Positions 6,454-39,692 of a stretch of DNA of 64,000 nucleotides are shown here, piece by piece. The translations under genes were made by a program, and so were the position numbers. This DNA comes from Kiloniellaceae bacterium (lineage in GTDB: Bacteria > Pseudomonadota > Alphaproteobacteria > Kiloniellales > J153), in contig JAJFGP010000142.1 in the NCBI GenBank assembly GCA_021776055.1, forward strand, positions 1,298 through 65,297. The letters are read 5' to 3'. The notes beneath the pieces were generated by a model. The model saw nothing but the letters and a program-made list of their open reading frames with translations, was not told the DNA's origin and did not search any database. The first letter of the stretch is position 1; each line of letters begins with the position of its first letter.

Positions 6454-6469
6454 TTAACATGGAGTTAAC
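6454..6469. promoter_or_regulatory. CtrA-type binding site TTAA-N7-TTAAC
   Basis: TTAA-CATGGAG-TTAAC; also reads TTAA-N7-TTAAC on the minus strand; a GANTC site (GAATC 6434-6438) lies downstream on the minus strand. Confidence 0.75.
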
Positions 6470-35073: not shown

Positions 35074-35790
35074 ATGGAACTGATATGGAATAGCCTGCCC
35101 CGCTTATTCGATGGCGCGCTACTGACCATAGAGATCACGGCGGTTAGTGTCGCCCTAGGCCTGTTGGCGGCCGTGCCGCTGGCGCTCTTGCGCCTGTCGC
35201 ATAATCCGTTTCTGCGACTGCCGGTCTATGCTTACATCTTCTACTTCCGCGGTACCCCGTTCATCGTGCAACTATTCCTGATCTACTATGGCAGCGGTCA
35301 ATTCCGCGACACCCTGGAATCGGCAGGCCTGTGGATCTTTTTCCGGGAGGCCTATTTCTGCGCCATTCTGGCGCTAACCCTAAATACCGCCGCCTACACG
35401 GCGGAGATATTTCGCGGCGCCATTCAAGGGGTGCCATTCGGCGAGATCGAGGCAGCGCGGGCTTGCGGCATGTCGCGCGGTCTTTTGTACCGCCGCATCA
35501 TCCTGCCCAAGGCCTTACGCCTGGCCCTACCGGCCTATTCCAACGAGGTGGTCTTTCTGCTGCAAACCACGTCCATCGTCTCAATTATCGCCTTGCTGGA
35601 TTTGACCGGGGTAGCGCGGGTCATCATCGCCCGCAGCTTCGAGCCCTATAAATTGTTCCTCGCCGCCGCTGTCATTTATCTGGTGATGACCTACGGCGTC
35701 CTCTACGTCTTCAAGAAGGTGGAATTCTGGCTTTCGGGCCATCTGCGTGAGCGGCCCGACGATTCGGTCAAAGCGGTGGTCGTTCGGTAA
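35074..35790 (+). CDS. Polar amino acid ABC permease (HisM-like)
   Basis: FRGTP, LNTAAYTAEIFRG, PAYSNE. Confidence 0.94.
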   Translation: MELIWNSLPRLFDGALLTIEITAVSVALGLLAAVPLALLRLSHNPFLRLPVYAYIFYFRGTPFIVQLFLIYYGSGQFRDTLESAGLWIFFREAYFCAILALTLNTAAYTAEIFRGAIQGVPFGEIEAARACGMSRGLLYRRIILPKALRLALPAYSNEVVFLLQTTSIVSIIALLDLTGVARVIIARSFEPYKLFLAAAVIYLVMTYGVLYVFKKVEFWLSGHLRERPDDSVKAVVVR

Positions 35791-35801
35791 TTTCCGATAC
35801 C

Positions 35802-36341
35802 TCAGGCCTGCTGCCGGCGTTTGCCCGCGAGGATGCGGCGGTCGATATCAGCCCCTTCCGGCACTGTCAGACCGGCCAGGCGCAAGGCCTTCAAGACGAT
35901 GGCCCGTTGGGTCGTGCCTTCCTGCGCCGCCAGGATACGGATTTGCCGAATGACACTGCGCGGCAGGGTGACCTGAAAGGCGGTGTCATCCTCCTGCGCT
36001 GGTATGTTTGGCGCTTTCGCGGCGAAAAGATTCTCGATACCGACGTGTGCCTCGGCGAAGAAATCGCCAGGCGACGACGCCGGGCGAGCCGCCGGGGGCG
36101 CGGCCCGGCGCGAGGGCAAATTCACGACCGCCGGACTTCCAACCGCGGGGCGGGGCGTGGACAGAGAACCCGGCCGCCGGACCGGGGCTTCGGCCGATGC
36201 TTGGATGGCGGCCGGAATACTGGCTGGCGGCGGTATGGCCGGATCCCGCGGTGCCATAAATACCGGGTCCTCGGGCACAACCTCCTGGGGCCGCCGCAGG
36301 AACTTGGGAACAGTTCTCAAGAAAGTGTCGTTGCCCGCCAT
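35802..36341 (-). CDS. Hypothetical protein: Pro/Ala-rich linker plus C-terminal ribbon-helix-helix-like domain
   Basis: AAAGGA RBS; C-terminus FQVTLPRSVIRQIRILAAQEGTTQRAIVLKALRLAG has the beta-alpha-alpha RHH pattern. Confidence 0.7.
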   Translation of the reverse strand: MAGNDTFLRTVPKFLRRPQEVVPEDPVFMAPRDPAIPPPASIPAAIQASAEAPVRRPGSLSTPRPAVGSPAVVNLPSRRAAPPAARPASSPGDFFAEAHVGIENLFAAKAPNIPAQEDDTAFQVTLPRSVIRQIRILAAQEGTTQRAIVLKALRLAGLTVPEGADIDRRILAGKRRQQA

Positions 36342-36357
36342 GTCCTTTAACCCCCCG

Positions 36358-36373
36358 GAACTTCATGAAGTTC
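36358..36373. promoter_or_regulatory. Perfect 16-bp palindrome GAACTTCATGAAGTTC (candidate operator)
   Basis: Directly upstream of the RHH gene RBS; overlaps a second dyad AAGTT-CAT-AACTT (36368-36380). Confidence 0.6.
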
Positions 36374-36392
36374 ATAACTTACGGACGTTAAG

Positions 36393-36408
36393 GTTAATGA
36401 ACGGTTAA
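36393..36408 (-). promoter_or_regulatory. CtrA-type binding site
   Basis: Minus strand TTAA-CCGTTCA-TTAAC; an extra TTAA half-site at 36388-36391. Confidence 0.7.
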
Positions 36409-36575
36409 GAAACGAGGGGAAAACACGTTCTCCATCAATGTGTTATCTCAATAGACACAGTGGCCGATATTTCGCCCGCGAGGCCCGAATTGGCAAAATT
36501 GACCATGCGGTGGGGCCGGTCCCTGCGCTATACTTCGAGTCGGGGCGAAGGCGATTAGGAAAACAGGAGCCGTAC

Positions 36576-39500
36576 TTGACGGGACGGCGCATATTTGGGC
36601 GCTGGTCTGATGGGGCGGGGGGCATCGGAAGCCGGATCTTGATCGCGGTCCTTGTGGGCGGCGGTCTTGGCCTGCTTTACGAGCTAAAAACGTCCACCCT
36701 CCAGGCCGACATCTTTTCATTTTTTGCCCGCAACCTCGTTTTCGAGCTAGCGGACGGACCCAATCCAGCGGCCCGATACCCGAGCCATGGGCCCTATAAT
36801 GCACGGCTGGGCTATGACCGGCTGGGTACGATGGTCGGCAAGCTGAGCGAGCAGTCCCATGCCGTCACGGTGCAAACCCGCCTATCGCCGGAGCTTGACC
36901 GCCTGGTGGCCCGCGGCGGCTTTGCCGTCTACCGGGAAAAGACGCAAGCCGGCCTGACGGTTGTCGACCGCGACCGGAAATCCCTGTTCACGGCGCGCTA
37001 TCCGACACGCGCCTATGGCAACTTTGCCGAGATACCATCGGTCCTGGTTAGGACGTTGCTCTTTATCGAGGATCGCGATCTTCTGAGCTCCCGGCCGATG
37101 CGCAATCCGGCTATCGACTGGAGCCGCATGCCGGTGGTGGCCAACGCCCTGTTCCGCCGCATTTGGGACAAGCAAGCGGATGTCCCCGGCGGCAGCACCC
37201 TGGCCACCCAGATCGAAAAATACCGCCATTCGCCCGGCGGCCAGACCGCGAGCGGGGGCGAGAAACTGCGGCAGATGTTGGCGGCTACCCAGCGCGCTTA
37301 TCTGGACGGGCCGGAGACCATGACCCGGCGCCGGCAGATCGTTATCGACTACCTGAACTCAACGCCGCTCTCGGCGCGGCCCGGATTTGGCGAGGTGAAT
37401 GGCCTGGGCGACGGGCTCGAGGCCTGGTACGGCACGGACTTCCAGGCCGCCAACCGGCTGCTGCGGCAGATACCCGGCAGCCACGATCCGTTGGACAGTC
37501 TCTTGTATCTGACGGCCGGCTACGCCGGGAATAGTGCCGCTACGGCACCGCCGGAGGCGCTGCTCATGCAAGCACGCATCTACAAGCAAGCCTTGAGCTT
37601 GCTGCTCGCACAGCGCCGGCCGTCGGGCTTCCTCCTCAGCGAGCAGGCCGCCCTGCGCCGCTTGACCGACGCGCATCTGCGCGTTCTTGCCGCCGCCGAC
37701 GTTATCAGCCCAGCCTTGCGCGACGCGGCCTTGCCATTACCGCTGAACATCGGCCCGGTGGCCGCCGGCGCCGAGACGGCAAGCGAAGCCAAAAGCAAGA
37801 TTCAACGCACCCTGCGCGCCGATCTTGTGTCCCTGCTGGGCGAGCCCAACCTCTACAGCCTCGATCGGATCGACCTGACAGCCCGCTCAACGGTCGACGG
37901 CCCGGTGCAGGAAGCGGTCGCCGAGATTGTGCAACGGCTGGCCGATCCGGAGTTTGCCGCGGCGCAAGGATTGACCGGCCGGCGCCTGCTTGGCAGCGGC
38001 GATCCCGCGAAACTGGCCTACAGCGTGACCTTGTTCGAACGCGGCCGAAGCGCCAACTACCTGCGCGTCCGAGTCGACAATCAGGATCGTCCCCTGGATT
38101 TCAACACCGGCGCCAAGCTGGACCTGGGCTCAACCGCCAAGCTGCGCACATTGGCGACCTACCTGCAGGCGGTTGCCACCTTGCACGAACGTTATGCGGC
38201 GCTGGAGCCGGCGCAGCTTGCCGCCGCCATTGCGGGCCGCAGCGATACCCTCACCCTGTGGGCGGCCCGGTATTTGCGCACCGCCCGTGACCGCGATCTG
38301 GCGACGATGTTGCACGCCGCCATGCAGCGCCGCTATTCCGCCAATCCGAACGAACGCTTCTTTACCGGCGGCGGGCAGCATACCTTCGCCAACTTCGATC
38401 CGAAGGACAATGTCCGCACCTTCACGGTGGCTAATGCTTTGCGCAACTCCATCAACCTGCCGTTCATCCGCTTGATGCGCGACATCGTCGGCTTTTATAC
38501 GCGTGAGGCTCAGCAGAACACCGATGCGTTGCTGCGCGACCACAAGAACCCGGACCGCGAGGACTATCTGGTGCGCTTCGCCGACCGGGAGGGCAGCACG
38601 TTCCTTAGAAAGTTCCACGCGGTCTACCGGGGCAAGACCCGCGACGAGATTCTCGCTATCGCAACCAGCCGGGCCCGGCAGCGGCCGAACGCCCTGGCGG
38701 TCGTCTTTCGCTCGATCAACCCGAAGGCCAATGTCGAGGAATTTGCCACATTCATCGCGGCGCAAGGTTCGGGGCAGGCAATCGGCGAGGCCGCGATCAG
38801 CAAGATCTATGGCAACTTCTCAGCGGACAACTGGTCTCTGGCCGACCGCGGGTATATCGCCCGTCTGCACCCGCTCGAACTTTGGTTGGCCGGCTACCTC
38901 TACGTCAATCCGGCAGCGACCAGCAGCGAAGTCATCGCCGCCAGCGAGGTTCAGCGGCGCGAGGCCTATACCTGGCTCTTCGGCGCCAAACGCTGGCGGG
39001 CACAGGATACCCGCATCCGCATCGTTCTGGAGGAAGAGGCCTTCGAGCTGATTCACGCCATCTGGAAGAAAACGGGCTATCCATTCGACAGCCTGGTCCC
39101 GTCGCTGGCCACGGCCCTGGGCAGCTCCGCCGACCGCCCGTCTGCCCTAGCCGAACTCATGGGTCTGATCATCAATGATGGCGTGCGCTTGCCGGTCGTG
39201 CGCTTCGATGAACTGCACTTCGCCGAAGGCACACCGTATGAGGTGAAGCTGACGGCGGCACCGGCGCCCGGCGAGCGGGTGTTTCCGCCGGAGGTCGCCG
39301 CTACCCTGAAAGATGCCTTGCTAGACGTAGTCGAGAACGGCACCGGGCGCCGCGCGCGTGGCGCCATCGCGGGTCCAGACGGCGAGGCCTTGCCCATCGG
39401 TGGCAAAACCGGCACCGGCGATGACCGGGCCAAGCGGTTCGTCGGCAGCCGCTTGGTCTCCTCGACCGTGCTCAACCGCAACGCCTGTCTCGTGTTCTTC

Positions 39501-39692
39501 ATCGGTGATCGGTATTTCGGCACCATCGTCGCGCACGTGAAGGGCGCCGAGGCAGCCAACTACCAATTCACCAGCGCCCTGCCTGCCCAGATTCTCAAGA
39601 TTCTAGGACCGGCGCTGGCACCGCTGTTCCAGCGGGCCGATCGGTACGCGGCAGACAATTTCCCCGGTGCCGCGCAAGCAGAACTGCGCTAG
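36576..39692 (+). CDS. Very large bifunctional class A penicillin-binding protein (transglycosylase plus transpeptidase)
   Basis: IEDRD, GGSTLATQ, STAK (SxxK), SIN (SxN), GGKTGTG; N-terminal TM; TTG 36576 follows AGGAG (the ORF is open from 36438). Confidence 0.88.
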   Translation: MTGRRIFGRWSDGAGGIGSRILIAVLVGGGLGLLYELKTSTLQADIFSFFARNLVFELADGPNPAARYPSHGPYNARLGYDRLGTMVGKLSEQSHAVTVQTRLSPELDRLVARGGFAVYREKTQAGLTVVDRDRKSLFTARYPTRAYGNFAEIPSVLVRTLLFIEDRDLLSSRPMRNPAIDWSRMPVVANALFRRIWDKQADVPGGSTLATQIEKYRHSPGGQTASGGEKLRQMLAATQRAYLDGPETMTRRRQIVIDYLNSTPLSARPGFGEVNGLGDGLEAWYGTDFQAANRLLRQIPGSHDPLDSLLYLTAGYAGNSAATAPPEALLMQARIYKQALSLLLAQRRPSGFLLSEQAALRRLTDAHLRVLAAADVISPALRDAALPLPLNIGPVAAGAETASEAKSKIQRTLRADLVSLLGEPNLYSLDRIDLTARSTVDGPVQEAVAEIVQRLADPEFAAAQGLTGRRLLGSGDPAKLAYSVTLFERGRSANYLRVRVDNQDRPLDFNTGAKLDLGSTAKLRTLATYLQAVATLHERYAALEPAQLAAAIAGRSDTLTLWAARYLRTARDRDLATMLHAAMQRRYSANPNERFFTGGGQHTFANFDPKDNVRTFTVANALRNSINLPFIRLMRDIVGFYTREAQQNTDALLRDHKNPDREDYLVRFADREGSTFLRKFHAVYRGKTRDEILAIATSRARQRPNALAVVFRSINPKANVEEFATFIAAQGSGQAIGEAAISKIYGNFSADNWSLADRGYIARLHPLELWLAGYLYVNPAATSSEVIAASEVQRREAYTWLFGAKRWRAQDTRIRIVLEEEAFELIHAIWKKTGYPFDSLVPSLATALGSSADRPSALAELMGLIINDGVRLPVVRFDELHFAEGTPYEVKLTAAPAPGERVFPPEVAATLKDALLDVVENGTGRRARGAIAGPDGEALPIGGKTGTGDDRAKRFVGSRLVSSTVLNRNACLVFFIGDRYFGTIVAHVKGAEAANYQFTSALPAQILKILGPALAPLFQRADRYAADNFPGAAQAELR

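Follow-up and report, generated by a model that had tools for sequence, protein, structure and literature searches.

Anchors and regulators gain access to the division ring through the C-terminal peptide of FtsZ, which serves as their hub, and we know of no natural imitator of this peptide that has been shown experimentally. The peptide is bound by FtsA (bioRxiv 10.1101/2023.09.08.556907). In Staphylococcus aureus, the C-termini of FtsZ and PBP4 were experimentally shown to share the GpsB recognition motif (S/T/N)-R-x-x-R-(R/K) (PMC11062636), and in Sinorhizobium meliloti the small, lineage-restricted protein FcrX is transcribed in dependence on a CtrA box and acts on FtsZ and division (PMC11929396). 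Among the ribbon-helix-helix (RHH) proteins, the small aCcr1 is reported to be a cell-cycle and division regulator of Sulfolobales (PMC9976892). Here, we describe P0001, an open reading frame (ORF) at positions 35802..36341 on the minus strand of a 64,000-nucleotide stretch of contig JAJFGP010000142.1 from a Kiloniellaceae bacterium, an uncultured organism represented by a metagenome-assembled genome; this whole stretch will be referred to as the window. P0001 encodes a protein of 179 amino acids (aa) with a predicted RHH domain and is a single-copy core gene restricted to one family. The protein is undescribed and family-restricted, and its gene stands behind a conserved CtrA-type promoter. 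Its new feature is a sequence resembling the FtsZ docking peptide, which is invariant and appears to be carried at the tip of a disordered arm. With somewhat less than even confidence, we propose a CtrA-timed, probably autorepressed, DNA-bound dimer whose arms would present FtsZ-tail mimics to receptors such as FtsA.

An N-terminal peptide resembling the FtsZ tail

The RHH protein consists of three parts, a short conserved N-terminal peptide, a Pro/Ala-rich linker of ~100 residues and a C-terminal RHH domain with a basic tail. The preliminary description had proposed the same layout (short N-terminal segment, Pro/Ala-rich stretch, C-terminal RHH-like domain) from the DNA letters, and both the family alignment and modelling with AlphaFold2 (AF2) agreed with it. 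The conserved peptide comprises residues 4-18 (NDTFLRTVPKFLRRP; 36288..36332, minus strand) and resembles the FtsZ C-terminal docking peptide. Within its core [IV]PxF[LM]RR, which was delimited in the family alignment (residues 11-17; 36291-36311, minus strand), P12, F14 and R17 are invariant and L15 and R16 near-invariant, and all of them lie within an otherwise unconserved arm. The peptide as a whole follows the pattern D-D-x-F-L-x-x-[IV]-P-x-F-L-R-R, with the logo D-D-D-E-F-L-R-S-[I/V]-P-x-F-L-R-R-x-E; the window protein reads VPKFLRR, and the family consensus is IPxFLRR after DDxFL. The motif was detected in 125 of 139 family proteins. Most of the remaining 14 start well inside the protein, three have a truncated or altered motif, and two are shorter relatives.

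The FtsZ of the same organism, encoded in the dcw cluster directly after ftsA, ends in SEEDLLEIPAFLRRQAN, and its C-terminal docking peptide is EEDLLEIPAFLRRQAN (EEDLLE-IPAFLRR-QAN). The same core peptide ends the FtsZ tail of Caulobacter. Both FtsZ and the RHH protein carry the peptide at the end of a long low-complexity linker rich in Pro and Ala, and in both the core is preceded by acidic and hydrophobic residues. The peptide of the RHH protein fits the consensus (D/E)-[IV]-P-x-F-[LM]-[RK]-[RK] on a chain-end segment of low model confidence. In BLASTP, the best local alignment between the RHH protein and the FtsZ tail was that of peptide with peptide, and a profile of the family N-terminal peptide placed FtsZ second among the non-self matches out of 34,348 ORFs. 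The relaxed pattern [ILV]PxF[LMI][RK][RK] occurred four times in 4.6 million six-frame residues, with F-L-R-R only in FtsZ and the RHH protein. When all 14 family genomes were searched with a DNA pattern for IPxFxRR, the background amounted to about one match or fewer per genome, and in-frame IPxF[LM]RR in plausible protein-coding ORFs was confined to this gene and the tail of FtsZ, both of which recurred across the genomes. In one genome (G072), what looked like a second IPKFLRR protein turned out to be an out-of-frame junk ORF. A region search for other proteins with the N-terminal module yielded none beyond the family. Derivation of the arm from the 3' end of ftsZ was rejected, as the peptide alone aligns in BLASTP. 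The arm may be read as an FtsZ-tail mimic because the FtsZ peptide is the docking site of FtsA, which is encoded beside ftsZ (contig C141:24195-25466), and because MinC is absent from all 14 family genomes.

The linker (residues 19-118; 35988..36287, minus strand) is 41% Pro+Ala and poorly conserved. AF2 modelled it with low confidence, the block means of the predicted local distance difference test (pLDDT) being ~48-63, which is consistent with disorder. Short motifs are semi-conserved within it, namely VV(D/N)L..RR and FFxE..IE, and LPW(L/M)AR(K/R) in other genera. The linker is followed by the RHH DNA-binding domain (residues 119-157, DTAFQVTLPRSVIRQIRILAAQEGTTQRAIVLKALRLAG; 35871..35987, minus strand), which was assigned by AF2 and Foldseek and is almost invariant in the family. 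The conserved C-terminal extension (residues 158-179, LTVPEGADIDRRILAGKRRQQA; 35805..35870, minus strand) ends in a basic helix and is also found in short stand-alone RHH relatives. In the family alignment, the almost invariant C-terminal block reads DDAAFQVTLPRSVIRQIRxLAAEEGTTHRAIVLRALRxAGLxVPEGADVDRRxxAAKRRQQA.

For the full-length protein, AF2 predicted an extended stretch in this domain followed by helices 128-141 and 145-155. Modelling of the C-terminal 62 residues alone resulted in an extended stretch, two helices (11-24 and 28-38) and a terminal basic helix, with a core block-mean pLDDT of 90-96. The Foldseek matches were mostly RHH proteins (Arc, CopG, KacA, VapB, CdbA, AtaR, NikA, ParD, PutA and CopA(SO)) with root-mean-square deviations of 1.1-3.2 Å over 35-42 columns; none of the E-values was significant, as is usual for domains of this size. 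Pfam Antitox_RHH matched below threshold (E 0.023, 15.3 bits versus a cut-off of 27.2), as did RHH_5. Among 22 family members, Antitox_RHH was found as a sub-threshold match (E<1) in 17, with a best E of 0.0039, and a profile search of the PDB retrieved the CopG-family RHH protein 9kkd at E 0.11. Based on these models, which were run on the monomer, and on the RHH matches in Foldseek, the C-terminal domain very probably adopts the RHH fold, in agreement with the preliminary description.

Several observations weigh against mimicry of the FtsZ tail. The likeness is short, comprising 7 core residues (12 with flanks), and it is statistically not significant; the BLASTP alignment reached only E 0.22 in a single comparison, and the reciprocal profile match to FtsZ only E 1.9. 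A profile of the FtsZ tail failed to retrieve the RHH protein among the ORFs of the genome, and it ranked above it a KdsA-like ORF with DVLQIPAFLCRQ and an ORF with an internal DIPAFLR. The higher ranks of these two ORFs demonstrate that chance can produce the core within larger ORFs. The peptide lies at opposite chain ends, N-terminal in the RHH protein and C-terminal in FtsZ (reversed polarity), and the two hydrophobic residues ahead of the core are displaced by one position compared to FtsZ. Furthermore, mimicry does not account for the additional conserved short motifs in the linker. The two look-alike ORFs are located on contigs C14 and C132 of the organism's own genome and, as chance matches, calibrate the trust to be placed in the motif alone; DVLQIPAFLCRQ (IPAFLCRQ) is presumably a KdsA-type motif.

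These points would be accommodated by an ordinary autoregulated RHH transcription factor or nucleoid-associated protein, in which the peptide acts, e.g., in cell-cycle proteolysis, as a degron or adaptor site that FtsZ has in common with it, or contacts RNA polymerase, the likeness to FtsZ being convergent or accidental. Autoregulation is common among RHH proteins, as exemplified by Arc, CopG, ParG and the antitoxins. The C-terminus of Escherichia coli FtsZ is reported to be a ClpXP recognition site as well (PMC3983244), and with FcrX of Sinorhizobium a CtrA-activated, small, ClpXP-dependent regulator exists (PMC11929396). Nevertheless, the peptide is the sole strongly conserved part of an arm of 118 residues, it matches the FtsZ core at every conserved position, and its place at the tip of a disordered linker is the right structural setting. 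We consider an ordinary regulator with a convergent or accidental FtsZ likeness rather unlikely. The argument for FtsZ-tail mimicry, which is not strong statistically, is drawn from the context that the sequences suggest, i.e., invariance within a drifting arm, chain-end position and an FtsZ-like linker.

The CtrA-type promoter and its inverted repeat

Read along the gene strand, the upstream region contains in order the CtrA-type box (36408-36394), the hexamer TAAGTT (36381-36376), a palindrome (36373-36358), a run of G residues (36356-36351) and the ATG at 36341. Box, palindrome, ribosome-binding site and ORF had all been pointed out in the preliminary description and were recovered at the positions given there. 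The box, TTAACCGTTCATTAA(CC) on the gene strand (36394..36408, minus strand), has the form TTAA-N7-TTAA (TTAACCGTTCATTAACC, 36408-36394); the published CtrA consensus is TTAA-N7-TTAAC (PMC7200025). On the sense strand, each of the 22 distinct homologous loci had TTNA-N7-TTAAY at a distance of 94-146 nt ahead of the motif codon. All relatives retain TTAAYC as the proximal half of the box, with TTAA, TTCA or TTTA as the distal one. Other spacings were observed in 0-8 of the 22 loci, the eight loci with an N6 spacing probably reflecting a third TTAA in this genus. In the window, TTAA-N7-TTAA occurs at two sites compared to 0.11 expected from shuffles; the second perfect site is TTAACATGGAGTTAA at 6454-6468. 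Genome-wide, 36 sites with this spacing were counted versus 2-10 for N5, N6, N8 and N9, an enrichment at the level of sequence that argues for a sizeable CtrA regulon. A CtrA orthologue is encoded in the genome (NF045991, 427 bits versus a cut-off of 350).

The -10-like hexamer TAAGTT (36376..36381, minus strand), which was deduced from conservation, starts 16 nt 3' of the first base of the proximal TTAA. A hexamer of the type NAnnnT was found at an offset of 16-17 in 22 out of 22 loci, in the form TAAGTT, TAAGCT, AAACTT, TAGATT or TAACGT, and all of these loci share the relative placement of box, hexamer and inverted repeat. With this -10 element, the box would extend from about -39 to -25 with its centre near -32, as in CtrA-activated promoters. 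Scanning with the sigma-70 consensus detected no promoter at this locus, a result that fits an activator-dependent, i.e., CtrA-dependent, promoter. Since the upstream neighbour varies, with a penicillin-binding protein (PBP) gene in this genus and a rhomboid gene elsewhere, the box can be attributed to the RHH gene. Of the cell-cycle regulation through CtrA suggested earlier, the box in every homologous locus examined and the presence of CtrA stand, and binding of CtrA to the box is presumed. The run GGGGGG (36351..36356, minus strand) reads as a probable Shine-Dalgarno element 9 nt 5' of the ATG; relatives of the same genus have GGGGG, GAGGG or AAGGA 7 nt ahead of the ATG.

The perfect 16-bp palindrome GAACTTCATGAAGTTC (36358..36373) with the half-site ACNTCA is located 16 nt upstream of the start codon. 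Its position between ribosome-binding site and CtrA box was confirmed, and it overlaps the predicted -10/+1 region where a repressor would act; the start site predicted from the -10 hexamer falls near 36369, inside the repeat. Repressors classically bind at such a position, and autorepression is typical of RHH proteins. In relatives, an inverted repeat is retained at an unchanged distance from the box, just downstream of the -10-like hexamer and in some genera overlapping it, with variation in arm sequence, loop length (0-8 nt) and the presence of a bulge. By genus, the variants are GAACTTCATGAAGTTC in this genus, CTCAAACTT-GTTG-AAGT(G)TTGAG in another, GGACTTCA-N8-TGAAGTCC or GACCTCA-N8-TGAGGTC, and ACGTCATGACGT, and the half-site ACNTCA is common to them. 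An operator function of the inverted repeat appears evenly poised. The arms differ between genera though the RHH beta-strand is invariant, which is awkward for a sequence-specific autorepressor and tells against this part of our proposal, as does a change of 8 nt in the spacing between the arms.

In this genus, three pentamer arms AAGTT-N3-AACTT-N4-AAGTT were noticed 8-9 bp apart (36376-36373; loci L015, L018, L072-L075 and L079). They are made of the -10-like TAAGTT, the 5' arm AACTT and the 3' arm AAGTT. A spacing of 8-9 bp is typical of subsite arrays bound by RHH proteins.

For the palindrome alone, the alternative considered was a stem-loop located at the 5' end of the mRNA, or close to it, that would affect stability or translation in place of serving as a protein operator. 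The position of the repeat is fixed relative to the promoter and not to the start codon, and pairing is kept while loop length (4 to 8-12 nt, depending on the inner pairs formed) and bulge vary between genera. Pair p5 occurs as U-A, U.G, C-G and G-C, and compensatory changes are found at three pairs. A manual count over 13 variants on the sense strand gave 63 Watson-Crick, 8 G.U, 1 A.C and 6 other pairs, and the summed folding energy was -75.3 kcal/mol for the sense versus -59.9 kcal/mol for the antisense strand. However, the stem is weak in most genera, that of the window reaching -3.9 kcal/mol (z = -1.6), and only one group folds at -12 to -15 kcal/mol. Two relatives have no corresponding stem, one of them showing no fold at all and the other only a 4-bp stem elsewhere. 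Given the conserved -10-like hexamer, the start site would fall within the 5' arm, and the G.U cases are phylogenetically non-independent. RNAalifold on a MAFFT alignment, in which the 3' arms were misplaced, gave no consensus structure. A functional RNA stem is unlikely.

Distribution, neighbourhood and the partition-type reading

A word-indexed search retrieved 127 homologues at E<=1e-3, and every database copy is unnamed or annotated as 'hypothetical'. The named homologue records are all metagenome-assembled genomes labelled Kiloniellaceae, Kiloniellales, Alphaproteobacteria or Proteobacteria. Of the 14 genomes of one family in the Alphaproteobacteria, whose records carry the label Kiloniellaceae, 12 contain the gene as a single copy, and completeness is only 81% for the two that lack it. 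Across the remaining 107 genomes of the order, no full-length match was detected, and a single weak match to the C-terminal domain was obtained (E 2.5e-4). As a single-copy core gene of its family, the gene is under selection. An exhaustive profile search against 1.84 billion representatives yielded ~40 representatives of the full-length type together with many stand-alone RHH proteins of 60-100 aa, which match the C-terminal 60 residues only. These stand-alone relatives share the RHH domain and the G-x-x-VP-x4-DRR tail. On two metagenome contigs of ~1 kb (L070:3-577 and L071:63-913), their genes adjoin a serine recombinase gene or a GHKL-type ATPase gene, not ParA. This suggests that the RHH domain was recruited from mobile-element regulators. 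Searches of the RHH protein itself against PHROGs, PADLOC and NCBIfam gave no matches, and with PHROGs and PADLOC empty a phage or defence origin was rejected.

The RHH gene is monocistronic and located between one divergent and one convergent gene. Downstream, it faces a convergent gene for a permease of the His/Arg-type ATP-binding cassette (ABC) transporters. The stops of these two genes are 11 nt apart (window 35788-35804), and no terminator-like hairpin was found between them. The divergent upstream neighbour encodes a class A PBP of ~1040 aa (36438-39692, plus strand), whose Transglycosylase match is weak and Transpeptidase match split, and which contains large inserts. This gene is the upstream neighbour only in this genus, and in other genera a rhomboid protease gene and dapB are found. 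As stated in the preliminary description, neither a ParA nor a toxin gene is adjacent, which holds for this locus and for the relatives whose flanks were inspected; a small co-directional partner ORF as a toxin candidate was likewise not found beside the RHH gene.

An adaptor similar to ParG or omega, whose arginine-bearing flexible N-terminal tail stimulates an orphan ParA-type ATPase and whose RHH domain autorepresses, would provide another explanation for the arm, with the MipZ paralogues as candidate partners. An RHH domain combined with a flexible N-terminal tail carrying conserved arginines does resemble ParG and omega, as known from the type Ib partition systems, and ParG (1p94) was among the weak Foldseek matches (probability 0.10). 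Each family genome encodes 3-5 full-length MipZ paralogues, including REC-MipZ and TerB-MipZ, whereas most of the order have one, and MinC is missing throughout the 14 family genomes. Nevertheless, no ParA gene is adjacent in any inspected locus, the Pfam matches of 22 members at E<=1 include no ParG model, and in place of a box array there is a single inverted repeat (with the third AAGTT arm in this genus). The two nearest RHH relatives with readable flanks adjoin a recombinase or GHKL-ATPase gene, and another family of the order (f7) has multiple MipZ paralogues without the RHH protein. Among the sequences compared with it, the closest match of the peptide was the FtsZ tail. Because both the ParA gene and the box array are lacking, the protein is not a strict partition adaptor, and an adaptor of this kind acting on an orphan ATPase is improbable. 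The label 'ParG-type' given in the preliminary description is not maintained, as there is no ParG Pfam match and no operator array, and the nearest relatives are small stand-alone RHH proteins. The partner expected there, ParA- or MipZ-like, is likewise replaced by a different candidate, the N-terminal peptide with its resemblance to the FtsZ tail pointing to tail receptors such as FtsA.

The lineage has no MinC, expanded MipZ paralogues and an FtsZ-Sel1 fusion. The organism's own genome contains four or five full-length MipZ paralogues (C118/C20, C113, C99:15888-16637 and C71:701-1489), among them receiver-domain-MipZ and TerB-MipZ fusions. A second FtsZ paralogue of 696 aa (contig C58:14928-17015) is composed of the GTPase domain and a long acidic linker and is devoid of a C-terminal docking peptide; its C-terminal repeats, read by eye, we take to be of the Sel1 type. 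Most family genomes, as well as part of family f7, carry full-length copies of this FtsZ-Sel1 paralogue. An exclusive link of the RHH protein to the MipZ expansion or to the FtsZ-Sel1 paralogue was rejected, as f7 has both without the RHH protein. A type II RHH antitoxin (no adjacent toxin gene, no family match), a multi-site factor of the SlmA/Noc type (palindrome unique in the genome) and a location at the terminus or origin (no dif-like site for the patterns tried in the genome, no GC-skew switch on the contig) were rejected as well.

Proposed mechanism and comparison with known systems

What can be observed are the architecture of the protein, a predicted RHH fold, the conservation of the peptide and its identity with the core of the FtsZ tail, the conservation of box, hexamer and repeat, and the presence of CtrA, FtsA and FtsZ in the genome; CtrA binding, autorepression and every protein-protein contact are what we infer beyond this. 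For the FtsZ-tail mimic, the following mechanism is conceivable. A dimeric RHH DNA-binding protein would be made from a CtrA-dependent promoter and would most likely bind the inverted repeat over its own -10/+1 region, thereby limiting its own synthesis. Each subunit would project a Pro/Ala-rich disordered arm of ~100 residues with the FtsZ-tail-like peptide at its tip. The DNA-bound dimer could thus present two mimics to proteins that normally hold the FtsZ tail, with FtsA as the obvious candidate receptor, and while CtrA is active the mimic might compete with FtsZ for the membrane anchor or tether DNA to that anchor. Judged from the sequences, this mechanism of FtsZ-tail mimicry is possible rather than probable. 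It is not extended by the genome scan, in which the palindrome, unique in the window, had no further copy in the 3.72-Mb genome when up to one mismatch was allowed and a single one at two mismatches. The scan for the palindrome that the preliminary description proposed thus finds no dispersed copies, and a role in nucleoid occlusion or Ter linkage is unsupported; together with the failure to detect a dif-like site for the patterns tried or a skew switch on the contig, this also counts against our proposal.

If the proposal is true, the RHH protein would represent a new class of division regulator acting by molecular mimicry of FtsZ and a new coupling of chromosome or cell cycle to cytokinesis, and it would suggest that tail mimicry is a general strategy. 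That it is the first chromosomal, cell-cycle-timed natural FtsZ-tail mimic, a DNA-anchored RHH dimer capturing FtsA or another tail receptor, is doubtful at present. Such a dimer would titrate the membrane anchor of the Z-ring or link it to DNA, and receptor occupancy might in turn feed back on the promoter of its gene. If the proposal is false, the locus is still a well-defined case of a lineage-specific RHH regulator transcribed from a CtrA-box promoter that a conserved inverted repeat overlaps.

In comparison with known systems, the RHH protein resembles in its architecture ParG (plasmid TP228) and omega (pSM19035), both of which combine a C-terminal RHH dimer with an unstructured arginine-bearing N-terminal tail, the comparison being one of architecture and not of tail sequences. 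A further probable common feature is autorepression through an inverted repeat in the promoter of the gene itself. Unlike these plasmid proteins, it is encoded by a chromosomal core gene, has a much longer linker, and lacks both a parA/parF neighbour and a box array. As a putative sequence-specific DNA binder with a predicted contact to the FtsZ system, it can be compared to SlmA, Noc, MatP and ZapT. However, these proteins have unrelated folds, of the TetR, ParB and MerR types, and act on many chromosomal sites, whereas the palindrome described here is unique in the genome; in addition, SlmA binds the FtsZ tail, whereas the RHH protein would imitate it. FcrX is likewise a small lineage-restricted protein behind a CtrA box, but it is a FliJ-like coiled coil without a DNA-binding domain that works through ClpXP, and there is no relation in sequence or fold. 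The archaeal aCcr1 is reported to be a small RHH protein tied to cell-cycle and division control as well; its sequence is unrelated, and no comparable docking peptide is described in the abstract.

The GpsB motif of S. aureus provides a precedent for one short docking motif that is common to the FtsZ tail and the flexible end of another protein and is recognized by the same receptor. The motif, the receptor and the phylum all differ from those considered here, and the GpsB case is experimental. With respect to the FtsZ tail itself, the peptide of the RHH protein is N-terminal and belongs to a predicted RHH dimer that would bind DNA, not to a polymerising GTPase, and outside the peptide there is no sequence homology to FtsZ. 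Within it, the core IPxFLRR at the end of a long Pro/Ala-rich disordered linker is identical to that of the FtsZ tail at every conserved position.

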